Below, piece after piece: positions 15,249-57,770 of a stretch of 60,690 nt of DNA. The position numbers and the translations under genes are program-made. The notes beneath the pieces were generated by a model. The model was not told the origin of the DNA, ran no database searches, and worked only from the letters and a program-made list of their open reading frames with translations. The stretch is from an uncultured Candidatus Saccharibacteria bacterium (GTDB lineage Bacteria; Patescibacteriota; Minisyncoccia; Phycocordibacterales; UBA9973): the NCBI GenBank assembly GCA_964624665.1, contig CAZUZG010000002.1:1-60690 (forward strand), given 5' to 3'. Each line of letters starts with the position of its first letter. The first letter of the stretch is position 1.

Positions 15249-17351
15249 TTATTCAATGGTTTTTTTGATTTGGTCTTCCAGGGAAGAGATTTCCTTTTCA
15301 AACATATCCAATTCTTCCAAGCTCAAGGAACCCTCAAGTATTTTTCTGGTTTTTTCCTCTTTCGTTGAAGCAATTTCCGGTTTTTCGCCTTTGGCCACGC
15401 CTGGTTCCAGTATGGTCTGGTCGATTTTCGGCCGGATTTCGATTTTTTGCTCCACTTCTGTTCTTCTTAAAAATTCTCTTTCCGCCTCTTCGGCTTTGGC
15501 CAAGAGCGTTTTTGTTTCGGTTTTGGGAATTTCTTCTGCTTGAGTTATGGTTAATTTGGCTTTTTGGGCATTTAAGATTTGCGCTGGATCGGAGGTGATG
15601 ATTTGGTCTTCGGTATAGGAGGCGATGATTTTAATCGCCACATGCTTTAAGCCGGCAAAAAATATGCCCTCGCCGATATTTGATTCCAAAAGGAGATATT
15701 TCTCTTCATCAGTCAGGTTGAATGTTTTTTGCAAGGTATCTATCGTGCTCGGTGATTGTTTTAGGAGGAGTTGAATGGAAGAGTTGGTGACGATCGGCAC
15801 GCCGTACGGAGATTTCATGAAGTCGCCGACATCTTGAGTGATGGTGCAAAGGCCGAGATAATATTTTCGGCCGCGCTTGGCGATAGAATAAAGAAATGAA
15901 GCGGTATCTTCGGATTTCATCATCCACCAGGCCTCATCGACAACCAGCAATCTTTTCTTGATATCTTTTCTAACGGCATTCCAAATGAAGTGCGTGACGA
16001 TATACATGGCGACCGGCTTCAATTCATCTTCCATGTCGCGCACGGAGAAAACCACGAATTTTTTATTGATATCGACATTGGAAGGCCGATTGATGAATCC
16101 GGCCCAAGTGCCCTTGGTGTATTTGGATAATTTCTGGACGATAGAATCGCTGCCTTCCATGCCGGAAAGAACCATTTCAAAATCAGAAAGGAGCGGCGGT
16201 TCGATATTTGAAAAATCGGAGTTTGGAGTTATGTCTTTCAAGGCATAGGTTTCTGAAATTGCCCGGTCGACGATCGCATCCTCTTCCGGGGTCAGGCCGC
16301 CCAGCATCAGCCTGAAAAGGCCGACCAGATTGATGATATTTGATCTCAAGACATCGGCAGCCGTTTCGTCTTCTCTGGGTATTGGCAGGTCAAACGGATT
16401 GATGTGATGCTGGGAAGAAAGCGAGATGTTGAAATATCGTCCGCCAACCGATTCGGCCAAGTATTCATATTCTTTTTCCGGATCGATCACGATAACGCTT
16501 GTATCGAACATCAGCGTTCTTAGAATTTCCAGCTTGGTCGCATATGATTTGCCGGCGCCAGATTTGGCAAAAATAATGGAATTATAGTTTTCCAGCGAGA
16601 AGCGGTCGAAAATCACCAAGCTGGAATTATGCCGATTGACGCCATATAAAATGCCTTTTTCAGAAGTCAGGTCGAAAGAAATAAATGGAAAGATGCTTGA
16701 AAGCGGTTCAGAGTTTAGTTTCTGATGAACATTGAGCAGATCATTGCCGAGCGGGATCGTGCTTTTAAAGCCATCTTCCTGCTGAAACAGGGCCGGTTTT
16801 ATATAGACCAATTTAGACTCCAAAATCGATCTGATTTCAGTTTCTATTTTATAAAGCTCATTTTCATTTTCAGCGTAGATGGTGATGTAAAGACCGACTT
16901 CAAAAAGCTTTTCCTGGGCTTGCTGGAGATCATCACGCAATGATTCAAGATCGCGATAAGCGGTGTCGAGTATCGGATCTCTGACCAAGCCTCTTTCCTC
17001 CCTGGCATTGATCTGGCTTTGGACCTCGGCAACTTTTTTTTGAAAGGCCTTTAAAACTTTCACTGTATTGACCGGGTGGATAAAAATCGAGACATCAAAT
17101 ATTTTATCCAGATTGATGATCGGCGAGAACCAATTGTCCGTCAAAAAACGCGGATAGGAGATTATGAAAAAGCTTCGGACTATTTTTTCTCCCAGATTTA
17201 ATGATTTGGATTCGATCTTGAGGGCCGACGGAGCGATGATGTCCTGCAGTTCCAGTGTGGCGGCCTGATAGATTTCTTCAGGCAGGATCGGCAAAACCGA
17301 CTTCTCCTCAGCTGTCTTTTTTTTGCCGAAAATTTTGTCAAAAATTGCCAT
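15249..17351 (-). CDS. virB4: VirB4/TraC-family type IV secretion ATPase
   Basis: Walker A FAKSGAGKSYATK and Walker B LLVVDEAWWMM, plus a GLCTITQ sensor-like motif. Start is set at MAIFDK (ATG 17351), 1 nt after the upstream gene's stop. Confidence 0.9.
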   Translation of the reverse strand: MAIFDKIFGKKKTAEEKSVLPILPEEIYQAATLELQDIIAPSALKIESKSLNLGEKIVRSFFIISYPRFLTDNWFSPIINLDKIFDVSIFIHPVNTVKVLKAFQKKVAEVQSQINAREERGLVRDPILDTAYRDLESLRDDLQQAQEKLFEVGLYITIYAENENELYKIETEIRSILESKLVYIKPALFQQEDGFKSTIPLGNDLLNVHQKLNSEPLSSIFPFISFDLTSEKGILYGVNRHNSSLVIFDRFSLENYNSIIFAKSGAGKSYATKLEILRTLMFDTSVIVIDPEKEYEYLAESVGGRYFNISLSSQHHINPFDLPIPREDETAADVLRSNIINLVGLFRLMLGGLTPEEDAIVDRAISETYALKDITPNSDFSNIEPPLLSDFEMVLSGMEGSDSIVQKLSKYTKGTWAGFINRPSNVDINKKFVVFSVRDMEDELKPVAMYIVTHFIWNAVRKDIKKRLLVVDEAWWMMKSEDTASFLYSIAKRGRKYYLGLCTITQDVGDFMKSPYGVPIVTNSSIQLLLKQSPSTIDTLQKTFNLTDEEKYLLLESNIGEGIFFAGLKHVAIKIIASYTEDQIITSDPAQILNAQKAKLTITQAEEIPKTETKTLLAKAEEAEREFLRRTEVEQKIEIRPKIDQTILEPGVAKGEKPEIASTKEEKTRKILEGSLSLEELDMFEKEISSLEDQIKKTIE

Positions 17352-18038: not shown

Positions 18039-18446
18039 CTATTTTCTTTTCATATCGAGAACATCCAAACTCCAAGAAATATCTTTCAATTTGCCTTCGG
18101 TCAGTCTTGGCGCATAGGTGATTTCCGGCTTTTTTATTTCCTCAACCTTTTTGGCTTCTTTTTTGCCGGTTTTCTTTTGCCAGACATAGAGTTTGGTCTG
18201 GGTCATGTAAGTCAAAAAAGCCTGCATTATGTTTATAAAAGGCTTTTCGTTGACTCGAATAAAAGTCAGAGCAGCTGCCAAGCTGATGACTGGCACGATA
18301 AATATTACAGCCAGGTAAAACGGCAAAGTCCTGTATAAGACATATGCAATGCCCGCGCCGCCGGCCATATAGGCGAATTGCTTGAAGGTGAAAGGTCCGA
18401 AAATTTTATCTTCAATGTCTATAAATTGTGGTACTCGAAATCTCAT
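18039..18446 (-). CDS. PrgI-family (VirB3-like) membrane protein
   Basis: MRFRVPQFIDIEDKIFGPFTFKQFAYMAGGAGIAYVL followed by two TM helices. This pattern is typical of PrgI/TcpE-type VirB3 analogues of monoderm T4SS. Confidence 0.6.
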   Translation of the reverse strand: MRFRVPQFIDIEDKIFGPFTFKQFAYMAGGAGIAYVLYRTLPFYLAVIFIVPVISLAAALTFIRVNEKPFINIMQAFLTYMTQTKLYVWQKKTGKKEAKKVEEIKKPEITYAPRLTEGKLKDISWSLDVLDMKRK

Positions 18447-35224: not shown

Positions 35225-35323
35225 GCCCGTAATCTTACCAGAAAGAGCCATTTTTTGCAAGCTCTGCCGCAATGTGGGCTTTGTTGATTATTGTGCGACA
35301 TTGATTTGATGTATAATTTCGGC

Positions 35324-36262
35324 ATGGCTTCAGATATTAAAAAAATCAAGCGGGACTTTTTAGAATATATAGAAATAGAGCGCGGTCAGGCCATAAGAAC
35401 CGTGGAAAATTATGACCATTATCTCTCGAGGTATTTTGATTTTGCAAACATTAATGACGTCGAAGATCTTACCGTTGAGTCGGTGAAGAATTTCAGGCTT
35501 TGGCTTAATCGCCAGTCAACCGGCAATAATCGAGCCACTGGCAAGACCCTTTCAAGAAAGACTCAAAATTATTATTTAATAGCGATTAGGGTTTTTTTAA
35601 AATATCTTAATAAAAAAGGCATAAAAGCCATACCGGCAGACCAAATCGAACTTGCTAAAATTCCAGAAAGGCAGATAGATTTGATCACCGCCGGCGAGCT
35701 GGGCCGCCTTTTGAACGCTCCCCAAGGAGACGACCTTAAGACCTTGCGCGACAAGGCAATTTTGGAGCTTTTATTCTCGACCGGCCTTCGGGTTTCTGAA
35801 CTATGTTCCTTAAACAGCGATATAGATTTGTCGGTCGATGAATTTTCCATTCGGGGCAAGGGCGGAAAGGTTAGAGTTGTATTTTTATCAGATGAGGCTA
35901 AGGATATTCTGAAAAAATACCTTTCTAAGCGCAAAGACATGGAAGAGGCGCTTTTTGTCCAGGTTGGAAAAGAGCTCAGGAAAAACGCAAATGGAGCCGT
36001 GGATGGCAAAACCAGCTCGCTGACAAGGCGTTCAATAGAAAGAATAGTAAAATACCACGCAATAAAGGCCGGAATTTCAAAAAAAGTCACTCCCCATGTC
36101 ATCAGGCATTGTTTTGCGACCGATCTTCTTTCGAATGGAGCCGATATTAGGTCGGTCCAGATGATGCTAGGGCATGCCAATATTGCCACAACTCAGATTT
36201 ACACCCATGTGACAGACAAACACCTGCTCGATGTCCATAAAAAATTCCACTCCAAAAGGTAG
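35324..36262 (+). CDS. xerC: Xer-type tyrosine recombinase
   Basis: Catalytic motifs RD..ILELLFSTGLRVSE, HVIRHCFAT and LGHANIATTQIYTHV. Start chosen at MASDIKKIKRDF. Confidence 0.85.
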   Translation: MASDIKKIKRDFLEYIEIERGQAIRTVENYDHYLSRYFDFANINDVEDLTVESVKNFRLWLNRQSTGNNRATGKTLSRKTQNYYLIAIRVFLKYLNKKGIKAIPADQIELAKIPERQIDLITAGELGRLLNAPQGDDLKTLRDKAILELLFSTGLRVSELCSLNSDIDLSVDEFSIRGKGGKVRVVFLSDEAKDILKKYLSKRKDMEEALFVQVGKELRKNANGAVDGKTSSLTRRSIERIVKYHAIKAGISKKVTPHVIRHCFATDLLSNGADIRSVQMMLGHANIATTQIYTHVTDKHLLDVHKKFHSKR

Positions 36263-36376: not shown

Positions 36377-37015
36377 ATGAGAACAAAAACTCTCGAGCAG
36401 ATCACGGCGCAAGATTTCGCTGGGCTGCAAGTTGACCAATTGCAAAAACTTCGCAACGGCAACATGACATTTGAACAGGTGAAATGGTTTAACAATCTTT
36501 CATTCGCAGAGCGTGAAGCGTTGATGGGCAAGCAACCTGAAAAGGCACTTATCCTGAAACTGATTTCCGAGGCACATGAGATTATTATCGAAACCTGTGA
36601 CGGCTCTCAAATCATTGCAAATGCTAAAGAAACCTTTAAATCATGGATCGATAACGATTTCAGAAACTGGGGTACCAACAAGGCTGGCAAATCAACCCAG
36701 AAAACACCGATACAGGTTCACGAAATGGTAAAGAATGCCACCTTTGCGCAAATGTTTAATTCGCTTTCGATCGATCTGGATAAACTGTGTCTGACACAGC
36801 ACCAGATAAAAACATTTTGCGAGGTTCATAAAGAGTGGTTACGCAAAGACGGATATGCGACTTTCTTCTTGTTTAAGGTTGAAGATCAATTCTTCGTTGC
36901 TCGCGTGCGCGTGTACTCTGGCGGCTTGCGCGTCAATGTGAGCCGGTTCGGGCGCGACTGCGTTTGGCCTGCCGGGTACTCTCTTCGCGTGGTGGTTCCG
37001 CAACTGGCCGCTTAG
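36377..37015 (+). CDS. hypothetical protein with GC-rich 3' end (212 aa)
   Basis: ATG ORF with its own terminator. The last 120 nt or so are visibly far more GC-rich than the surrounding sequence (…gcgtgcgcgtgtactctggcggcttgcgcg…). Confidence 0.5.
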
Positions 37016-37043: not shown

Positions 37044-37078
37044 AATCCCTTTGATTCTTCGGAATTGAAGGGATTTTT
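37044..37078 (+). terminator. terminator of the 36377-37015 gene
   Basis: Long hairpin aatccctt...aagggatt with inner stem attc/gaat capped by a ttcg tetraloop, followed by ttttt. Confidence 0.6.
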
Positions 37079-37116
37079 GACTTTTTGCAATTTCGGGTTA
37101 ATATGTAGATTGTTAG

Positions 37117-37140
37117 TCCGTTCTCGAACGGGCTTTTTTT
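37117..37140 (+). terminator. second hairpin plus T7 run in the nusA leader (possible attenuator)
   Basis: ccgtt-ctcg-aacgg (extendable by a G.U pair) followed by ttttttt. It is preceded by ttgact-16 nt-taatat (37077-37104). Confidence 0.5.
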
Positions 37141-37155
37141 ATAAAAAAATTGATA

Positions 37156-37257
37156 GTTTGAAACTATTCTTCGTCAGGTCGCATAATTTTCTGCTGAAAA
37201 TTTGCTCGTGCTCGGCTCGTCAGCCTGCGCAAAGCCTGTCAAATAATAGTTCCAAAC
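37156..37257 (+). repeat. 102-nt structured intergenic element, copy A (candidate ncRNA)
   Basis: Shares its core with 47227-47328 (+) and 56982-57083 (-). Outer 13-nt arms gtttgaaactatt / aatagttccaaac are complementary. Ends 15 nt before the nusA ATG. Confidence 0.6.
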
Positions 37258-37272
37258 ATCCTAAAACTAAAT

Positions 37273-38529
37273 ATGTTAGACCTAAAAGTGATGAAATCAG
37301 CGCTCGAACAGCTTGAAGAAGAGCGCAAAATTCCAAAAGAAAAAATAATTGAGGCTATCGAACTGGCTCTAGCTGCCGCTTACAAGAAAGATTACGGTAA
37401 AAAAGACCAAATTATAAGGGCTAAATTCGATATGGATACCGGAACCACGGATTTTTCTCAGATCAAGATTGTTGTAGACGAGTCTACCGTCAGAATGCCG
37501 GAAGAAGATGAGGGTGAAATAGAAACTGAGGAAGAGGGCGAATTGGAGGAAAAAGTCCGTTTTAATGAAGAAAAGCACATCCTGCTTGAAGATGCCAAGA
37601 AAATCAAAAAAGATGCCAAGCTGGAAGACGAAATCGTTTTTTCGCTTGAGCCGAAAGATGATTATGGCCGAATCGCCGCCCAGACCGCCAAGCAGGTTAT
37701 AATTCAGCGTATCAGAGAAGCTGAAAGAACTTCAATTTTAGGTGAATACGGCGACAAGGAAGGTGAAATTATCAGCGGTTTCGTTCAAAAAATCGAACGG
37801 GGCGCTATTTTTGTCGATTTCAATCGGGCGGTCGGCATTATTTCGTCGGAAGAACAAATTCCAGGTGAAAACTTCAGTCGAGGTCAAAGGATCAAGGCTT
37901 ATCTCTATCAAGTCGAAGAAGGTCCGCGCGGAGTCAATTTGCGTTTATCTCGCACTCATCCAAAGTTTTTGGAAAAACTTTTTGCCATGGAGGCGCCTGA
38001 AATTGCCTCTGGCGTGGTTGAAATCAAAAGCATTGCCCGAGAAGCCGGTTCCAGATCAAAAATCGCCGTTATGTCGCATGATGAAAATGTCGATCCGGTC
38101 GGATCATGTGTCGGCCAGAAAGGCATCAGGGTCACCACGGTCATGAGCGAACTGTCCGGCGAGAAAATAGATCTGATTCCATGGTCGGCTGATCCGAAAG
38201 AGTTTGTAATAAATTCTTTGTCCCCGGCGAAAGTTTTGGAAATAAATATAAACGAAGAAGAGCATAAAGCGACAATTGAAGTCGCCAATGACCAGCTGTC
38301 TTTGGCGATCGGCAAAGGTGGACAAAATGTAAGATTGGCGGCCAAGCTAACCGGTTGGAAGATCGATATCAAGGGTGTCGGCGGAGAGGAGGCCCTTGAG
38401 CCGGCAGAAGAAGCAGGAATGGAAAACGATCAATTGGAGGCTGAAATGAAAAATGATGAAACCGATACCGCAACAGCAGACCAGTCTTTAAAAGAAATGA
38501 TCGAAGAATCAAAGAAGTCCGAAGAGTAA
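37273..38529 (+). CDS. nusA: transcription termination/antitermination factor NusA
   Basis: N-terminal NusA domain, S1 domain (GEIISGFVQKIERGAIFVDF) and two KH domains (VGSCVGQKGIRV, AIGKGGQNVRLAAKLTGWKIDI). Confidence 0.95.
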   Translation: MLDLKVMKSALEQLEEERKIPKEKIIEAIELALAAAYKKDYGKKDQIIRAKFDMDTGTTDFSQIKIVVDESTVRMPEEDEGEIETEEEGELEEKVRFNEEKHILLEDAKKIKKDAKLEDEIVFSLEPKDDYGRIAAQTAKQVIIQRIREAERTSILGEYGDKEGEIISGFVQKIERGAIFVDFNRAVGIISSEEQIPGENFSRGQRIKAYLYQVEEGPRGVNLRLSRTHPKFLEKLFAMEAPEIASGVVEIKSIAREAGSRSKIAVMSHDENVDPVGSCVGQKGIRVTTVMSELSGEKIDLIPWSADPKEFVINSLSPAKVLEININEEEHKATIEVANDQLSLAIGKGGQNVRLAAKLTGWKIDIKGVGGEEALEPAEEAGMENDQLEAEMKNDETDTATADQSLKEMIEESKKSEE

Positions 38530-46155: not shown

Positions 46156-46160
46156 TTTTG

Positions 46161-46231
46161 TGCGGGATAAGGGAATCGAACCCTTGACATCAGTTTGGAA
46201 AACTGAAGTTATACCATTTAACTAATCCCGC
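46161..46231 (-). tRNA. tRNA-Gly (anticodon UCC)
   Basis: The reverse complement folds as gcgggat-ta-gtta-aatggta-taac-t-tcagt-tttccaa-actga-tgtc-aaggg-ttcgatt-ccctt-atcccgc-a. No CCA is encoded. Confidence 0.85.
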
Positions 46232-46236
46232 TACTA

Positions 46237-46308
46237 TCGGGCTACTGGGATTCGAACCCAGACTAAATGCTCCCAAAGCAATCGTGCTAGCCGTTACACT
46301 ATAGCCCG
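46237..46308 (-). tRNA. tRNA-Pro (anticodon UGG)
   Basis: The reverse complement folds as cgggcta-ta-gtgt-aacggcta-gcac-g-attgc-tttggga-gcatt-tagt-ctggg-ttcgaat-cccag-tagcccg-a. There is one U.U mismatch in the anticodon stem. Confidence 0.8.
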
Positions 46309-46354
46309 TTTCAAAATTCTTACAAAAAAATGCCTACATATATTAGCATATTAT

Positions 46355-46780
46355 TTATAAAATCACATCCTCCATCACGGAAACCTTGGCCACTCGCCTT
46401 TCCATATCTAAAAAGACAGAACAAACATCAAATTGCCAAAACTTCTGCTCCGGGACTTTTCTGTCCAAAAGATAAGTTTGAATGACTCGACCGAGCCTTT
46501 TTAATTTCCATGGATGAATATTGTCTGTCGGTTTATAGGAATCTCTACTTCCTATCTGCGCAGGTAGATTTGAAACTCGATTCAGTGTTTTACATGAAAC
46601 GCTTTTAACTTCTATGAAATGGATCTTATTATCCTTTTCTGCCACAATATCAATTTCACCCCATTTTTTGGTGTAATTTTGCTCTAAAATCAAGTAATCT
46701 TGTTTCACAAGAAACTTACAGGCAATATCTTCGCCCAATTTACCAATTTTTTGTTTTTCAGATGTAAAGATTTTAGGCAT
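46355..46780 (-). CDS. yraN: YraN-family (UPF0102) endonuclease-like protein
   Basis: GKLGEDIACKFLVKQDYLILEQNY...GEIDIVAEKDNKIHFIEVKS is the YraN core. Confidence 0.8.
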   Translation of the reverse strand: MPKIFTSEKQKIGKLGEDIACKFLVKQDYLILEQNYTKKWGEIDIVAEKDNKIHFIEVKSVSCKTLNRVSNLPAQIGSRDSYKPTDNIHPWKLKRLGRVIQTYLLDRKVPEQKFWQFDVCSVFLDMERRVAKVSVMEDVIL

Positions 46781-46998
46781 TTTGTTTAGTTACATGTGTA
46801 ACAAATTGTAACAAATCAAACCTGATTTTTTTATGTTTCACATGAAACAAATAATCCTTTATTGGACAGAAAAAATATTTTCTAATCTTGAAAATATTTA
46901 AAAAAGCTTATATTTCAATACCATTCTTGCAAGAAGCCTTTTTTCGGACAAATAAAATTTATTTTTCATTTACTGTCTTTTAAACAATGTCCACAAAG

Positions 46999-47007
46999 TT
47001 ATCCACA
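46999..47007 (+). promoter_or_regulatory. perfect DnaA box TTATCCACA outside oriC
   Basis: Exact 9-mer in the yraN / tRNA-Gly spacer. A degenerate box atgtccaca lies 3 nt upstream. Confidence 0.4.
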
Positions 47008-47103
47008 GATTACTTTGATTTTTAATGTGTTTTTAGCTCTAAAGTACAGTCAAATTAGATCTTTTATTAAAGACATATAATTGTCTTTAATTTTGGTTTT
47101 CTG

Positions 47104-47174
47104 TGCGGGTAGGGAGAATCGAACTCCCGTCTCATCCTTGGCAAGGACGTGTTCTACCACTAAACCATACCCGC
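47104..47174 (-). tRNA. tRNA-Gly (anticodon GCC)
   Basis: The reverse complement folds as gcgggta-tg-gttt-agtggta-gaac-a-cgtcc-ttgccaa-ggatg-agac-gggag-ttcgatt-ctccc-tacccgc-a. Confidence 0.85.
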
Positions 47175-47226
47175 ATAATATTTAATTAGGAATATTATAG
47201 CATGAAATTTATTTTGATACATATCC

Positions 47227-47328
47227 ATTCAGATTTATTATTTTTCAGACGCGTATAATTTTTTGCTAAAAATTTACTATGCTCGGTCTGTCGACCTGCG
47301 CAATGTCTTTAAAACAATAAATCTGAAT
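47227..47328 (+). repeat. 102-nt structured intergenic element, copy B
   Basis: Outer arms attcagatttatt / aataaatctgaat are perfectly complementary. The core gcgtataattttttgctaaaaattt...gctcggtctgtcgacctgcgcaatgtct is shared with copies A and C. Confidence 0.6.
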
Positions 47329-47367
47329 TTGCTATATCGTTTAAAGTTCTTTGCTTGCTTTTTCTTG

Positions 47368-47439
47368 TGCACCCAGCAGGATTCGAACCCACAATAACGG
47401 TTCCGAAGACCGTTGTGATATCCATTTCACCATAGGTGC
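47368..47439 (-). tRNA. tRNA-Arg (anticodon UCG)
   Basis: The reverse complement folds as gcaccta-tg-gtga-aatggata-tcac-a-acggt-cttcgga-accgt-tatt-gtggg-ttcgaat-cctgc-tgggtgc-a. Confidence 0.8.
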
Positions 47440-52045: not shown

Positions 52046-54013
52046 ATGAAAAATAATTTTTTGAAAAATTTAAAAGTTATAGTTCTGAGCATGGCGCTGG
52101 CCTTTTTTATCAGTTTTATCAGGGTGAATGCCGGCTTAAATGCCGCAGATCAAGCCCCGTCAGCGCCACCGGCAAATGATGCTCCGGCGCTTGTAAATAG
52201 CGGTTCTCTTTATCAGTGGAAGCAGGGCGGCCTAGCTGTCGGTTCAAATTCTTTGCCGTTTTCCACTTTGGTTAATTTGGATATTAAGGGTTCTGTCGGC
52301 TCATTTGCTGTTACCAGTCTTTTTAGCGATTATGTCGCCACTCGCGGCATTTTAAGAATTTTAAACTCCGATCCTTCTTTTAATCCGAGCGGAACAAGTT
52401 TGGTTAAAGTGAATGGAACGGTTCGCTCTTCCAATTTGGCGAATACTTCGATGAAGGGAGTCTGCGCCAATAGTTATGGAGGCTTTGTCTTATGCGGGCA
52501 AGTACCGTCAAAGGTGCTTCATGTGAATTTTAACGGCAATGGCGTTGGTGGTGTCACGACAAATCCAGCCGGCCTATACAGCTGTTTTACCTATCATGCT
52601 TCTACTTGTTCAGCCAATTTTGCCAACAATGCGACAGTAACTCTGATACCTAATTCTACTGATTCAAGTTTTGGCGGCTGGAACGGCACCATTGACGCAA
52701 ATGGCAATCCCTGTACGACTCAACCAACCTGCACGATTTTAATGGATTCAGATAAAACTGTGACTGTCACTTTTACTCTTTTTCCTAAATTGACTATTTC
52801 GAAAACCGGCAGCGGATCTGGCACAGTAACAAGTTCATCTAATCTCATAAACTGCGGAAGCACTTGCAGTAATTATTACGATCCAGCCGAAGCGCAAGAA
52901 ACTTTATATGCAACACCTGACACAGATTCTTTTTTTGACAGGTATTCAAATTGCACAGGTTCTTCAGGCAATCAATGCAACGTTACAGTTAATAGCAATA
53001 TTGTCAGATATGTAAGTTTTGAGAAAAAAACATATGGCACTTGCGGTACAGCAAATGGCGTATCGACTTTAACCAAGCCAACATCCAATCTCTGTTCTGT
53101 GGGAACAGCTTCTTCTGTAACAGGGTCCGGCCCTTGGAGCTGGACATGCGCTGGAAATAGCGGATCAGCGGTTGCCTGCGGGGCGCCGGTGATGACATCG
53201 CCTTTTACTCAGGGCTCTTATTCTTGCAATAGTGTCGGCACTGAGTCTATTACCGTATGCAAGTCCGGTTGCGCTATTAATGGCTTGCCTGGCCAGGTGT
53301 TCACTATGGTGACCGAAGTTTGGGGATCTGGCGGAGGCGGCGCGGCTGGCGGAACTTATAGCGCTGGAAGCGCTGGCTCAGGTCCCGGCGGCGGCGGCGG
53401 CGGCGGCGGCGGCTATGCTACAAGAACAGGTTCAGTTACTGTGCCAGCCAGCGGGGTTTACACTATGTCTTGTACGGTTGGTGCCGGCGGTTTGGGTGGC
53501 ACATATTTCCCTCAAACATATCCTACAGCAGGTGAGCAGACCAAAATAGCCGATTCCCAGGGTAGAATTCTCAGCGCCGGCGGCGGTGCCGGCGGCGGAG
53601 TTATTGGAAATAATGGCTGTCGCACTTGCGGCACTAAATCCGGAGCTGATGGCGGCGCCGGCGGTTCTTGGGGATACAATGCTTCCGGTGGCGGCTATAG
53701 CGGCATGAATGGTTCCGCTGGTGGAGCGAGTGTCGGCAGTAGTTGGTGCAAGGGCGGCCATGGCGGTCAGGGTGGCACAGCCGCCAATAGCGGTATTCTC
53801 GGTTATGATGGCGCCGGCGGGGCTGGCGGTCAAGACGGATTTAATGGCAGCGCCTGGATGGGCCCTGGTCCTGGCCATGCTTTTGGCGGCGGCGGCGGCG
53901 GCGGAAATGGAGGCTACAACGACTCCTTATTTTGCGCAGATGCATTACCGAATTATGGTATTAGTGACGGTGCTAACGGCGAGCGAGGCTATGCTCGTTT
54001 TACATGGTATTAA
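52046..54013 (+). CDS. large secreted protein: shared N-module, two InlB-B-repeat-like domains, Cys-knot-like segment and glycine-rich C-terminal domain
   Basis: Signal peptide. The PPANDAPALVN...Q.K.GGL motif and VCANSYGGFVLCG are shared with the two downstream paralogues. Also present are two GSG.V....I.CG..C segments, TCGTANG...LC..G...GSGPWSWTC, and poly-Gly tracts. Confidence 0.65.
   Translation: MKNNFLKNLKVIVLSMALAFFISFIRVNAGLNAADQAPSAPPANDAPALVNSGSLYQWKQGGLAVGSNSLPFSTLVNLDIKGSVGSFAVTSLFSDYVATRGILRILNSDPSFNPSGTSLVKVNGTVRSSNLANTSMKGVCANSYGGFVLCGQVPSKVLHVNFNGNGVGGVTTNPAGLYSCFTYHASTCSANFANNATVTLIPNSTDSSFGGWNGTIDANGNPCTTQPTCTILMDSDKTVTVTFTLFPKLTISKTGSGSGTVTSSSNLINCGSTCSNYYDPAEAQETLYATPDTDSFFDRYSNCTGSSGNQCNVTVNSNIVRYVSFEKKTYGTCGTANGVSTLTKPTSNLCSVGTASSVTGSGPWSWTCAGNSGSAVACGAPVMTSPFTQGSYSCNSVGTESITVCKSGCAINGLPGQVFTMVTEVWGSGGGGAAGGTYSAGSAGSGPGGGGGGGGGYATRTGSVTVPASGVYTMSCTVGAGGLGGTYFPQTYPTAGEQTKIADSQGRILSAGGGAGGGVIGNNGCRTCGTKSGADGGAGGSWGYNASGGGYSGMNGSAGGASVGSSWCKGGHGGQGGTAANSGILGYDGAGGAGGQDGFNGSAWMGPGPGHAFGGGGGGGNGGYNDSLFCADALPNYGISDGANGERGYARFTWY
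53387..53413 (+). repeat. (GGC)9 trinucleotide repeat encoding Gly9
   Basis: Nine perfect ggc units. A second (ggc)6 tract lies at 53885-53902. Confidence 0.9.
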
Positions 54014-54031: not shown

Positions 54032-54178
54032 ATAAATCATATGAAAAATTACATACAATCAATTAAAATAATCATCCTAGGTTCAATTATCGCCGGCGGT
54101 TTTGGCTTGGCTTCTGCTTGGGTCGTGCCAGCCACAACACCTCCCGGTGGCAATGTTCCAGCGCCGATCAATGTTTCG
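54032..54178 (+). repeat. 147-bp perfect direct repeat, copy 1
   Basis: Identical base-for-base to 54463-54609. It covers 9 nt upstream of the ATG plus the first 46 codons. Confidence 0.9.
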
Positions 54179-54466
54179 AATAGTCCTCAGTATAAGATTG
54201 GCAAGATGGGTCTCGGTTCCGGCGTTATGCCAAGAGCGACTTTTGATGTAAGCGGCGTCGCAAAACTAGACCAGATGCTGGTTTTTAACAATTCTGTCAT
54301 TGGCGGCAAATTGGTTGTCGGCAGCGCCAATGCCCCAACAGCTTCCTCGGCAAGCCTTGATGTGACCGGAGAAATTGTCGCCAGTTCTTTGAATGATCCT
54401 TCGACTGGTTCCGGCTTGCGCTCGCTCTGCGCTGATGTGAGCGGTCGCATTATTCTTTGTCCATAA
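54041..54466 (+). CDS. secreted paralogue 1 (141 aa) with PPGGN.PAPIN N-module and C-terminal C..G..ILCP motif
   Basis: MKNYIQSIKIIILGSIIAGGFGLASAWVVPATTPPGGNVPAPINVS... ending LCADVSGRIILCP. Confidence 0.6.
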   Translation: MKNYIQSIKIIILGSIIAGGFGLASAWVVPATTPPGGNVPAPINVSNSPQYKIGKMGLGSGVMPRATFDVSGVAKLDQMLVFNNSVIGGKLVVGSANAPTASSASLDVTGEIVASSLNDPSTGSGLRSLCADVSGRIILCP

Positions 54467-54609
54467 ATCATATGAAAAATTACATACAATCAATTAAAAT
54501 AATCATCCTAGGTTCAATTATCGCCGGCGGTTTTGGCTTGGCTTCTGCTTGGGTCGTGCCAGCCACAACACCTCCCGGTGGCAATGTTCCAGCGCCGATC
54601 AATGTTTCG
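54463..54609 (+). repeat. 147-bp perfect direct repeat, copy 2
   Basis: Identical to 54032-54178, at an offset of 431 nt. Confidence 0.9.
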
Positions 54610-54963
54610 GGCAATGCGCAGTATAAGGTGGGTGGGTTGGCTATAGGTGAAGGTGTCAGCGTAGCTCCTTTGGTTAATAATTCGGCCAGTCTTGTTGTCG
54701 GCGGTCTCAGCGCGGCTCAAAGTTTTGTCGCTCAAGCAAATGCCATTGCGGCGGACCATTATACTGTCGGTCCGAATAGCGCTATTTATGCCGATATTGG
54801 ATCAGGCGGTTTTGACATAGAAGCTTCTGTTGCAGGCAATGATAGTTTGTTGCTTTCATCTAACCTTGATCAAGCCCACAATCCGGGTGCGACTTATCCG
54901 GCCCGTCTTTGCGCCGACGGCCAAGGCGGGATCGTTTTGTGTCCAGATAACCAAGTTCAGTAA
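54472..54963 (+). CDS. secreted paralogue 2 (163 aa)
   Basis: The first 46 residues are the same as in paralogue 1. The body diverges and ends LCADGQGGIVLCPDNQVQ. Start is set at ATG 54472. Confidence 0.6.
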   Translation: MKNYIQSIKIIILGSIIAGGFGLASAWVVPATTPPGGNVPAPINVSGNAQYKVGGLAIGEGVSVAPLVNNSASLVVGGLSAAQSFVAQANAIAADHYTVGPNSAIYADIGSGGFDIEASVAGNDSLLLSSNLDQAHNPGATYPARLCADGQGGIVLCPDNQVQ

Positions 54964-54977
54964 GTTTCATAAATAGA

Positions 54978-55745
54978 ATGAAGCAAAATAAAAAAATAAT
55001 TGTTGCCAACTGGAAAATGAACCCGGAAAAAGAAACCGGGGCTATTGTTTTAGCTAAAGCTCTAAATAAGAAAAATGTCATCATTTGCCCGCCATTTGTT
55101 TATTTGTCCGCCGTTTCAAAAATACTGAAAAGCAAAAATTCAAAAACAAAGGCTGTTTTAGGCGCGCAAAATTTTTTTACTGAAAACAGTGGATCTTATA
55201 CCGGACAGATTTCTATTGGAATGCTAAAAAATTTCGGCGTGAAATTTGTAATTTTAGGCCATTCGGAAAACAGAATAACGGGGGAATCTAGCGAATATGT
55301 AAATTTAAAAATAAAAAGCGCTTTGAAAGCCGGCATTACGCCCATTGTTTGCATCGGCGAAAAATCCAGAGATGAGCAGATGTCTTATTTGAATTTCGTC
55401 AGTGATCAGATTAAGGAAACTTTTTCTGGTATTTCAAAAAATAATATGAATAAAATCATCATCGCTTATGAACCGATCTGGGCCATCGGCAAGAATGCCG
55501 ACCGCGAAGCCACTCCGGAAGAATCAAATGAAATGATGATCTTTATCAAGAAAGTTTTGAGCGACATGTTTGGCTTGGTGAATATTAAAAAAATCAGAAT
55601 TTTATATGGCGGTTCGGTTGGCCCAAAAAATGCCGCTTTATTTTTGAAAAATGGCGGAGCCGACGGCCTTTTGGTCGGCCGGGCGTCCTTGGATCCGAAG
55701 AAATTTAATGAAATAGTTTATATGGCTGAAAATGCAATCAATTAA
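54978..55745 (+). CDS. tpiA: triosephosphate isomerase
   Basis: VANWKMN, ILGHSE.R, AYEPIWAIG and YGGSV motifs. Confidence 0.95.
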   Translation: MKQNKKIIVANWKMNPEKETGAIVLAKALNKKNVIICPPFVYLSAVSKILKSKNSKTKAVLGAQNFFTENSGSYTGQISIGMLKNFGVKFVILGHSENRITGESSEYVNLKIKSALKAGITPIVCIGEKSRDEQMSYLNFVSDQIKETFSGISKNNMNKIIIAYEPIWAIGKNADREATPEESNEMMIFIKKVLSDMFGLVNIKKIRILYGGSVGPKNAALFLKNGGADGLLVGRASLDPKKFNEIVYMAENAIN

Positions 55746-56868
55746 AAAATTAAAAAATTTAAAGAATAAAAAAGTTATTGTCAGGGTTGATTTTAATGTG
55801 CCGATCAGAAACGGCAAGATTTTGGATGATTATCGAATCAAGAAAGCTCTGCCGACGATAAATTTTTTGCGGAAAAAAGGCGCCAAGATTATTTTAATTT
55901 CGCATTTGGGCGACGAGAGCGGACGGACATTAAAACCGGTTGCGACATATCTCAATAAATTTTTCAAAGTCGATTTTTGTCCGCTCGATCAAAATCCAAA
56001 ATTAGAATCGAGTAATGTGGTTTTGCTCGAGAATTTAAGAATAAATATGGGTGAAGAAAAAAACAATATTTCTTTTGCCAAGAAATTGGCTTCATATGCC
56101 GATATATATGTGAATGAAGCTTTTTCTGTTTGCCATAGGAAACATGCTTCGATCGTCAGCCTGCCGAAATATTTGCCGAGCTATGCCGGACTGCAATTGG
56201 AAGAAGAAATAAAAAATTTGAAGTCCGTGCTTATTAAACCGTTAAAACCATTTTTGTTTATATTGGGCGGCGCCAAGTTTGAAACCAAAATTCCGCTTAT
56301 CAATAAATTCATAGGCCACGCTTCAAAGGACGGTGCGCGACATGATCTCGCTAGATCAGCCGATCAGGTTTTTATTGGTGGCGCCCTAGCCAATAATTTT
56401 TTCAAAGAGCGGGGTTGGGAGATAGGGCAATCTTTAGTTGACGAGAAAAATTTCGGCTTGAAGAAAATTTTAAGAAATGAAAAACTGATTCTGCCGATCG
56501 ATGTTTTGGTTTTCAAGAATAAAAAAAGTTTTATTAAAAAGCCATATGAAGTAGCTGAAGATGAATATATTGCCGACATCGGGCCGGAATCGGTCGCTTT
56601 GGCGGAATCTCTGATGAAAAAAGCCAAGATGATTCTTTGGAACGGGCCGATGGGCAATTATGAGCAGGGATTTGGTCGGGCGACTGAAGACATGTTGAAA
56701 GTCATGGCTAAAGTAAAAGGCAAGACGATTGTTGGCGGCGGGGATACCGTAGCCCTTATTTCAAAATTGAAGCTCGAAAATAAATTGACCTTTGTCTCGA
56801 CCGGCGGCGGCGCAACTTTGGAATTTTTAGCCAGAGGTACTTTGCCTGGAATTGAAGTTCTAAATTAA
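55732..56868 (+). CDS. pgk: phosphoglycerate kinase
   Basis: VRVDFNVP, ISHLG, LENLR, GGAKF..KI and STGGGA motifs. Overlaps tpiA by 14 nt. Confidence 0.95.
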   Translation: MQSIKKLKNLKNKKVIVRVDFNVPIRNGKILDDYRIKKALPTINFLRKKGAKIILISHLGDESGRTLKPVATYLNKFFKVDFCPLDQNPKLESSNVVLLENLRINMGEEKNNISFAKKLASYADIYVNEAFSVCHRKHASIVSLPKYLPSYAGLQLEEEIKNLKSVLIKPLKPFLFILGGAKFETKIPLINKFIGHASKDGARHDLARSADQVFIGGALANNFFKERGWEIGQSLVDEKNFGLKKILRNEKLILPIDVLVFKNKKSFIKKPYEVAEDEYIADIGPESVALAESLMKKAKMILWNGPMGNYEQGFGRATEDMLKVMAKVKGKTIVGGGDTVALISKLKLENKLTFVSTGGGATLEFLARGTLPGIEVLN

Positions 56869-56981
56869 ACCTGAGTATTTCTCTGGGTACGGATTTTTTG
56901 AAGCTTAAAAAATCCTGAAGTTTTCGTGTCGACACGCTCAAAACCCCCTCCGAAAAACTAGGTTTAATTAGATTATGAAAA

Positions 56982-57083
56982 TTTGAATTTATTCTTTCGA
57001 AGACATTGCACGGGTCGACTGAACCGAGTATGGTAAATTTTCAGCAGAAAATTATACGCGTTTGAGAAACAATAGAATTCAAA
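56982..57083 (-). repeat. 102-nt structured intergenic element, copy C (inverted orientation)
   Basis: The reverse complement reads tttgaattctatt...gcgtataattttctgctgaaaatttaccatactcggttcagtcgacccgtgcaatgtct...aataaattcaaa. Located between convergent pgk and the HIT gene. Confidence 0.6.
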
Positions 57084-57089
57084 TTGTAA

Positions 57090-57770
<681 letters not shown>

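Follow-up and report, generated by a model that had tools for sequence, protein, structure and literature searches.

A widespread structured repeat of Patescibacteria with a conserved two-hairpin core and variable complementary arms

We describe a short intergenic element of Patescibacteria that occurs in four copies within a 60,690-nucleotide (nt) stretch of contig CAZUZG010000002.1 (assembly GCA_964624665.1, uncultured Candidatus Saccharibacteria bacterium; hereafter the window), where one copy, termed copy A, lies in the 5′ leader of nusA. The element is shown to represent a real, widespread and previously undescribed family of structured repeats, with more than 150 copies in about 110 species among the matches listed for the present sample alone, with strong covariation and no counterpart in Rfam or the literature. 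The family is a dispersed insertion element in its behaviour, because its copies stand in unrelated intergenic contexts, are present or absent at orthologous sites, recur several times per genome and, where linked to tRNAs, carry direct repeats of the integration type. We give about an even chance to the reading that it is a non-autonomous mobile or duplicative element which acts as a folded single strand and whose core is recognised by a protein in trans.

Patescibacteria, also known as the Candidate Phyla Radiation (CPR), have tiny, streamlined genomes, and to our knowledge almost no non-coding or mobile elements have been characterised in them. If the element is mobile DNA, its conserved structured centre, free arms and lack of a nearby transposase would constitute a new architecture, and its tie to tRNA 3′ ends would hint at single-strand, integrase-like chemistry; if it is RNA, it would rank among the most abundant lineage-specific RNAs of Patescibacteria. 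It is found in the 5′ leaders and at the 3′ ends of core genes (nusA, PGK, tRNA operons), it appears to break short-read assemblies, and two covariance models, R1 and R2, of which R2 was built from the broader alignment, could serve for its annotation.

Core structure and covariation

The conserved core of about 60 nt comprises two hairpins, H1 and H2, and is enclosed by a closing stem. Written on the reverse strand, that is, the strand complementary to the one given in the initial annotation of the window, H1 has a 10-bp A/U-rich stem (3 + 7) with one bulged base and a loop of the form ANCA, and H2 has a 7-bp stem (3 + 4) with an internal loop G-S-A / G-A and a loop of the form GNCG. The closing stem spans 12–59 bp (median 27 aligned bp) and differs in sequence between genomes with its pairing kept. 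Including the arms, the gene-less element has a median length of 116 bp (range 88–176).

Three copies of 102 nt each had been delimited in the initial annotation, at 37156–37257 (copy A), 47227–47328 (copy B) and 56982–57083 (copy C). All of them are present, and independent folding with flanking sequence gave ends within a few bases of that delimitation (37152–37260, 47227–47328 and 56980–57085). Copies A–C have a mean column identity of 80% and fold into a long hairpin that closes on a three-way junction with two inner hairpins; compared with shuffled sequences, the fold z-scores were −5.6 (A), −5.7 (B) and −1.8 (C) on the strand as first annotated, and −6.2, −7.8 and −1.9 on the opposite strand. 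The 21-nt core pattern occurs three times in the window where 0.25 occurrences are expected, a number reached in none of 100 shuffles, and the covariance-model E-values of these copies range from 1e-16 to 1e-12. Absent from the initial annotation were a divergent fourth copy, D (56859–56972), and a separate conserved hairpin with a T-run at 37115–37145, both of which are treated below.

The outer stems had been reported to differ in every copy and to remain complementary, and this is borne out: gtttgaaactatt/aatagttccaaac of copy A pairs with one mismatch (A·C on the plus strand, G·U on the minus strand), attcagatttatt/aataaatctgaat of copy B is perfectly paired and tttgaattctatt/aataaattcaaa of copy C has one C·A mismatch. 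The paired substitutions described for the inner helices were also recovered, namely in the closing pair of H1 (aattttC-tgct-Gaaaatt in A and C, T...A in B), in H2 (ggCT-cgtc-AGcc in A vs ggTC-tgtc-GAcc in B) and in the inner stem (agGT/GCct in A vs agAC/GTct in B).

Genuine covariation in several helices, as had been proposed from the three copies, was confirmed in two alignments of the core. In the seed, for which 78 cores were aligned on the reverse strand and the structure was set by hand, 97.3% of cells pair and 133 show double changes, vs 33 in shuffles; controls in which the structure was slid along the alignment pair in just 32–56% of cells. The second test set consisted of 64 copies taken from loci that hold several, and many of these copies fall outside the core pattern. 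Here, 14 of the 17 core pairs (8/10 in H1, 6/7 in H2) are changed on both sides, amounting to 207 double-change cells with 96.5% of cells paired; none of 500 shuffles attained any of the observed measures, and slid controls pair in 36–59% of cells. The hand-set structure on the core alignment replaced an alignment of the raw flanks with MAFFT and RNAalifold, which had recovered the structure in part only. Among the same 64 copies, unpaired bases on the reverse strand are conserved as well: the H1 loop is AGCA in 48, the bulged A of H1 is present in 53, the H2 loop is GACG, GGCG or GUCG in 44, and the GA side of the internal loop, opposite G(C/G)A, is retained in 60.

Copy A illustrates this anatomy. 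It extends over 37156–37257, ends 15 nt before the nusA start codon at 37273 and scores 83.9 bits (E = 1.5e-16) against model R1 on the minus strand, its presumed folded strand. The arms of the closing stem are at 37156–37168 (gtttgaaactatt) and 37245–37257 (aatagttccaaac). H1 (37181–37205, minus strand; 3 + 7 bp, A/U-rich) carries a single bulged base, T37184 on the plus strand (A on the minus strand), and a 4-nt loop reading tgct on plus and AGCA on minus; H2 (37209–37231, minus strand; 3 + 4 bp) shows the conserved 3 × 2 internal loop, G-S-A / G-A on the minus strand, and the loop GACG.

The initial annotation took covariation of this kind as an argument for a folded RNA or a DNA cruciform. 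The conserved structure is real. Differing but complementary outer stems, in turn, do not by themselves prove selection on RNA, because arm-to-arm correction in a DNA palindrome gives the same pattern; arms that are free in sequence and still self-complementary thus fit either pairing selection, as for RNA, or such correction. The arms are related among copies within one genome, as seen for copies A–C of the window and for three copies at locus L094, and therefore travel with the unit. A copying of the arms from the insertion target was rejected for copy A, since both of its arms are missing at the empty sites described below and the arms of A–C are related at unrelated loci.

Distribution, empty sites and tRNA 3′ ends

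A one-genome-per-species collection was searched with the core pattern AATTTTNTGCTNAAAATT-N(4-16)-CTCGG. Among the matches listed, it was found at at least 119 loci in about 110 genomes, nearly all of them metagenome-assembled genomes of Patescibacteria and mostly of Paceibacteria (Nomura-, Kaiser-, Adler-, Zambryski-, Taylor-, Vogel-, Yonath-, Lloydbacteria and others). The two free N positions of the pattern read C..G or T..A in every match listed. The covariance-model search that had been suggested for finding further copies yielded 153 of them with R1 in 838 kb of loci, about 33 beyond the pattern matches, as well as the fourth copy in the window; the model E-values are rough, and so are the calls of open reading frames (ORFs) in the loci. 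Besides the four copies in the 61-kb window, many 8-kb loci hold two to four, frequently arranged in tandem or as inverted pairs separated by about 120 nt, and the density besides the index copy is about one per 25 kb.

The initial annotation did not assign the motif to any described RNA family, and this is supported. Searching the whole window against Rfam 15 at the gathering score returned four tRNAs only, and copy A at E ≤ 10 gave nothing on the element, just weak matches to the upstream terminator hairpin. The 18 loci with tRNA-linked copies matched tRNA, tmRNA, 5S and 23S models only, and locus L046 at E ≤ 5 gave no match on the element. No core-pattern match was obtained in viral contigs, blastn against phage and plasmid collections found no similar sequence, and a literature search by topic and by core sequence brought up nothing relevant.

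Copy A had been labelled a nusA leader, a label that the relatives contradict. The window leader begins with a sigma-70-like site, TTGACT-16-TAATAT (37077–37104), followed by the hairpin AGTCCGTTCTCGAACGGGCT with its T-run (37115–37145). In 11 contigs of relatives (L121–L132), with NusA 73–82% identical in those found through a NusA search, the promoter-like site and the hairpin are kept (the latter identical in eight contigs and near-identical in three), and the element is present in none. The hairpin is followed there either by 26–35 nt and the ATG (L121, L123, L124, L125) or by unrelated hairpins of 27–80 nt (L126/L130/L132, L127/L129, L128/L131). When 37156–37257 is subtracted from the window, 31 nt separate the T-run from the ATG, equal to the 31 nt of the empty site in L121. 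Models R1 and R2 detected no copy in 90 kb of relatives, as against four in the 61-kb window (Poisson P = 0.003). Since the relatives keep the leader hairpin without the element and provide empty sites, copy A, arms included, is shown to be an insertion into the nusA 5′ leader and not part of it. Small palindromic insertions either concentrate at this site or are tolerated there. The position of copy A within the leader, 15 nt before the ATG, would agree with a leader RNA that regulates nusA in cis; we give this reading next to no credence, since the empty orthologous sites in the 11 contigs refute it and the remaining window copies and 150 further copies lie in unrelated contexts.

Other repeat families probably exist in the relatives' genomes. 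The unrelated leader inserts of about 55 nt (L127/L129), 80 nt (L128/L131) and 27 nt (L126/L130/L132) have fold z-scores of −4.6, −4.9 and −3.1, respectively. The leader hairpin itself resembles a conserved attenuator or terminator, possibly for NusA autoregulation. A 212-aa ORF without a Pfam match (36377–37015) lies between a gene for a Xer-like integrase and the nusA leader in the window; L124 and L125 lack it there and have the leader right behind the integrase gene. An exact-protein lookup with the window NusA gave no match.

Two classes of copies can be told apart. In class I, to which about 94 of the 123 pattern matches listed belong, including all window copies, the closing stem encloses the core. 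Class II (about 29 of the 123) is found mostly in G+C-richer genomes, and most of its copies lie within 300 nt of tRNA genes; one stands beside a tmRNA gene and two are near 5S rRNA genes. Read on the tRNA-sense strand, a class II locus consists of the complete tRNA, a short flank and loop, the reverse complement of the flank and tRNA 3′ end, H2, H1 ending in ...GUGAC, and then the 3′ end of the same tRNA a second time, in direct orientation. The copied stretch has its start in the T-loop, at CGA (C56), and its end at the discriminator or up to 10 nt farther on (L005); exact repeats at single loci measure 15–26 nt. Direct repeats of the tRNA 3′ end that are exact over 12 nt or more follow 9 of 20 element-linked tRNAs, right behind the core, vs 5 of 71 other tRNAs (Fisher P = 2e-4), and at least two of these five control tRNAs (L005, L044) precede variant copies. 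The arm tracks the local tRNA, as is evident from L005 (arm GACTTGAA, tRNA TTCAAGTC) and L106 (arm GGACTCGAA, tRNA TTCGAGTCC).

The order X – loop – X′ – core – X was observed at L005, L011, L025, L035, L038, L044, L046, L072, L102, L106 and L114. In tRNA- and tmRNA-linked copies, the acceptor 3′ strand of the tRNA can also pair with the element arm, forming a 'hairpin 0' of up to 29 bp. At L070 (2781–3010), a copy lies between two 5S rRNA gene segments that share an exact repeat of 34 nt, part of the second segment being hidden by N; the duplication of tRNA 3′ ends may have a 5S-linked counterpart here.

The initial annotation had favoured a folded RNA or cruciform over a recently spread MITE (a miniature transposable element with inverted repeats). 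This preference does not hold up against the dispersal of the copies, the empty orthologous sites, the several copies per genome and the tRNA-linked direct repeats.

Folded strand, genomic context and competing readings

Several asymmetries indicate that folding takes place on the strand complementary to the one first annotated. In the outer stems of class I copies, transition mismatches are G·T on the reverse strand in 67 cases vs 17 on the other (P = 3e-8). Written on the reverse strand, 23 of 78 copies have G·U at one H1 pair, which would be A·C on the opposite strand, and the core helices contain 34 G·U vs 15 A·C. Finally, of the tRNA genes lying within 300 nt, 39 run in the same direction as the reverse strand and 3 in the other (P = 6e-9). 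A bias from deamination alone, acting on the coding or the lagging-template strand, was discarded because the wobble asymmetry it predicts is the opposite of that seen; the observed asymmetry is thus read as selection on a single-stranded fold. A replication-strand bias behind all orientation data was rejected as well, since tRNA-linked and protein-gene-linked copies are biased oppositely. The folded strand may be RNA or single-stranded DNA, as the wobble data fit both.

The mobile-element reading can be spelled out as follows. The active form would be the folded single strand complementary to the one first annotated; the conserved core would offer a handle to a trans-acting protein, for example a recombinase or transposase, and pairing would be the sole requirement on the closing stem. 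A circle or dumbbell (arm – core – arm – loop) could recombine via one arm with an identical tRNA 3′ end, which would leave the observed class II layout, the footprint of tRNA-targeting integrative elements. Once inserted, copies persist for long, with orthologous sites occupied in different species, and they may be tolerated or co-opted as terminator-like hairpins or hairpins of untranslated regions (UTRs). A bolder version is that of a new class of miniature gene-less mobile element, a rod- or dumbbell-shaped single-stranded circle composed of loop, stem and three-way-junction core, which we put forward tentatively and regard as doubtful. A host or helper recombinase would integrate such a circle, with the core as handle and the stem as copy of the target, and this would account both for tRNA 3′-end duplications that start in the T-loop and for stems of free sequence.

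A number of observations weigh against mobility. The circular or excised form is a postulate and is not among the observations. The scan of 29 window ORFs, which was incomplete, revealed no transposase, HUH nuclease or reverse transcriptase; the sole recombinase in the window is the Xer-like integrase (35291–36262), which is syntenic in relatives without the element. Ascertainment by an exact core pattern inflates the apparent sequence invariance of the family. Arms that are conserved within a genome and differ between genomes are the reverse of the classical architecture of MITEs and REPINs. Flanking repeats or target-site duplications were looked for at class I copies and not found: the longest direct repeats in the flanks have a median of 6 nt, apparently no more than chance would give, judged without a shuffled control, and the 15-nt edge flanks share 3–4 nt and no consistent motif, the arm boundaries being so imprecise that a duplication of 2–3 bp could escape. 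The strand as first annotated is co-directional with the gene reading into the element in 64 cases vs 26, so that the orientation bias relative to protein genes is opposite to that relative to tRNA genes, and one mechanism does not cover both. The strongest point against a purely selfish element comes from nine locus pairs that share both flanks at 66–82% nucleotide identity and thus represent orthologous sites occupied in different species. In these pairs, conservation extends over the core, which is intact in all, and over the inner ~10 bp of the stem, and the outer arms vary in sequence and length, each being almost perfectly self-complementary. The retention of intact cores suggests purifying selection on individual copies, which would be unusual for purely selfish DNA and fits a host-level function, perhaps as RNA.

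At the RNA level, the core could be a protein-binding small RNA or module, released from a long processing stem of free sequence (by RNase III cleavage, in the manner of rRNA) or set free from precursors of tRNA by the enzymes that process them, or a cis-acting UTR hairpin that stabilises or ends transcripts, with copies arising by duplication. Such a function is the main rival to the mobile-element reading and, on our assessment, possible and rather unlikely. Covariation together with conserved loop, bulge and internal-loop bases is typical of functional RNAs, and the G·U excess on one strand, the 39:3 co-orientation of that strand with tRNA genes and the intact cores and fully complementary arms at orthologous sites, despite 66–82% flank identity, speak in the same sense. 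At L005 the element lies between a tRNA and its terminator and would hence be co-transcribed; 71% of class I copies directly follow a gene reading into them, and copies C and D fill a convergent gap in which no canonical terminator is predicted. Yet the wobble-favoured strand is antisense to surrounding co-directional genes in 32 cases vs 13, so most copies would need a promoter of their own; a conserved one was not seen, and an upstream position is precluded if insertion involves the entire hairpin. A perfect stem as long as 59 bp would be uncommon in a stable RNA, close relatives show a patchy distribution, and tRNA 3′-end repeats that reach up to 10 nt past the tRNA (L005) are DNA duplications and not RNA features. 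The hairpin is also not followed by a U-tract in either orientation: of 83 copies, 8 on the reverse strand and 11 on the other (10–13%) have T4 or more within 12 nt after the stem. An intrinsic terminator was rejected on these counts, the arms being A/T-rich. Should RNA be the active form, the family could be an equally novel, widespread class of small RNAs that hitch-hike on tRNA transcription units and are cut from long processing stems.

Much less probable is a site acting in double-stranded DNA, either a portable promoter, for which H1 would provide CATAAT/TATAAT as −10 and the arm would provide the −35, or an operator of palindromic form bound by a dimeric protein. Copy A does present TTGAAA-18-CATAAT (10/12 matches) towards nusA, and H1 is a 7-4-7 inverted repeat. 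Against this, the −10-like hexamer is lost in variants that keep the hairpin, for example GCTGTCTTTTTC in L094, the −35 would sit in the variable arm, the spacing is 20 nt in copies B and C, and tRNA genes are antisense to the promoter direction by 39:3. Moreover, a loop that is not palindromic, a bulge and asymmetric wobble pairs are features of a single strand. The promoter was dismissed on the grounds that its hexamers are inconsistent among copies and the −10 is gone in variants.

The genomic surroundings are those of housekeeping genes. Clustering of 647 neighbouring ORFs from 119 loci found no protein family at more than six loci; release factor, SerRS, DprA, RuvC, UDG, EF-P and TGT were among the neighbours, and Pfam scans of nearby families and of the 29 window ORFs gave housekeeping genes only, besides the Xer-like integrase.

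Copy B (47227–47328, minus strand; 80.6 bits with R1) is located between tRNA-Arg(tcg) (47367–47439) and tRNA-Gly(gcc) (47103–47174), both on the minus strand and co-oriented with its folded strand; a direct repeat of the tRNA 3′ end was looked for at this copy and not found. An extended −10 motif, TGCTATAAT (47194–47202, minus strand), lies between copy B and tRNA-Gly, 19 nt upstream of the latter. The tRNA-Gly gene therefore probably has its own promoter, which would place copy B at the end of the tRNA-Arg transcription unit. Comparison of 46160–47439 with positions 17268–18852 of L121/L123 showed that the order and orientation of tRNA genes around a UPF0102 gene differ from the syntenic relatives: in this rearrangement beside copy B, tRNA-Arg(tcg) has the reverse orientation and the two tRNA-Gly genes have changed places.

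Copy C (56982–57083), with the plus strand as presumed folded strand (66.6 bits with R1), begins 7 nt past the stop codon of a HIT-family gene (57090–57554, minus strand). Copy D (56859–56972, minus strand) stands back to back with it, and its distal arm covers the last codons and the stop of PGK (55732–56868); C and D occupy the entire gap between the convergent HIT-family and PGK genes. Copy D scores 21.8 bits (E = 0.006) with R1 and 38.9 bits (E = 2.6e-6) with R2; its H1, GGAUUUUUU-AAGCUUC-AAAAAAUCC, lacks the bulge and its own closing stem has 20 bp. It represents a second subfamily that is also found in L015 (3684–3759). Model R2 revealed no window copy beyond A–D. The only public contig with an identical PGK protein, L001 (Logan SRR12113420_109200, 2.2 kb), stops 47 nt past the PGK stop, inside copy D, consistent with an assembly breaking at the repeat.

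Elsewhere in the window, a 186-nt direct repeat (54032–54217 and 54463–54648; 92% identity) spans the starts of two adjacent ORFs without a Pfam match (54041–54466 and 54457–54963). Upstream of it, the ORF at 52046–54013 contains long GGC (glycine-rich) repeats (53384–53918). A PrgI-family protein is encoded at 18039–18446 among very large minus-strand ORFs (about 15.2–26.1 kb), a region that may be a type IV secretion or conjugation-like cluster.

Comparison with known systems

With interspersed palindromic repeats and MITEs (ERIC, REP/BIME/REPIN, Correia, RUP, BOX), the element shares its short, gene-less and intergenic nature, its several to many copies per genome, the long-hairpin fold, the insertion polymorphism between relatives and the frequent position just after stop codons. 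As expected of a MITE, it combines inverted repeats (arms of 12–59 bp) and lack of coding capacity with dispersed, polymorphic copies (153 copies, empty sites); unlike MITEs and REPINs, it has a two-hairpin, three-way-junction centre that is conserved across a whole class of bacteria, arms that vary between genomes, and a core maintained at orthologous sites over deep divergence, and it shows neither a target-site duplication, which is missing from class I copies, nor a GTAG or CGTC tag; a cognate transposase or a REP-associated tyrosine transposase (RAYT) was not found. The REP/REPIN arrangement is not reproduced, as the centre is conserved, the ends are variable and the listed arm ends bear no tag; the H2 loop is the only place where CGTC is seen, and no Y1 transposase was detected in the incomplete scan of window ORFs.

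Palindrome-associated transposable elements (PATEs) derived from IS200/IS605 resemble the element in lacking a target-site duplication and in their bulged hairpins and strand-specific single-strand logic, with a circular single-strand intermediate being plausible. They differ in having two subterminal hairpins where the element forms one, and no conserved target tetranucleotide, TnpA/TnpB or Rfam IS605/HEARO match was found. For an activity at the RNA level alone, the processing stems of rRNA type would offer an analogy, in that a long variable complementary stem brackets a conserved structured core; the element differs by being dispersed in several insertion-polymorphic copies per genome.

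The prophages, integrative and conjugative elements and islands that target tRNA genes share with the tRNA-linked copies a direct repeat of the tRNA or tmRNA, running from the T-loop to the 3′ end or beyond in fixed orientation. In the present case the 'island' between the repeats measures ~110–130 bp, contains no ORF and hence no integrase, and also includes the repeat in reverse-complemented form. The four window copies, like the majority of others, lie away from tRNA 3′ ends and have no such repeat.

Integron attC sites differ from the element in that they conserve almost no sequence, whereas its core is sequence-conserved, and in their R″/R′ core sites, cassette arrays and intI, for which the element offers no conserved heptamer at the arm ends, single copies or inverted pairs among housekeeping genes, and a recombinase that is only postulated. 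What it shares with attC and with the attP(+) hairpin of the CTX phage is a structure conserved with free stem sequence, a conserved extrahelical base and one favoured strand, and, in its tRNA-linked copies, a stem that reproduces the double-stranded target sequence. By this analogy, the miniature circle could be a single-strand counterpart of integron cassettes or of the CTX phage, only ~130 nt in size and spread across Patescibacteria.

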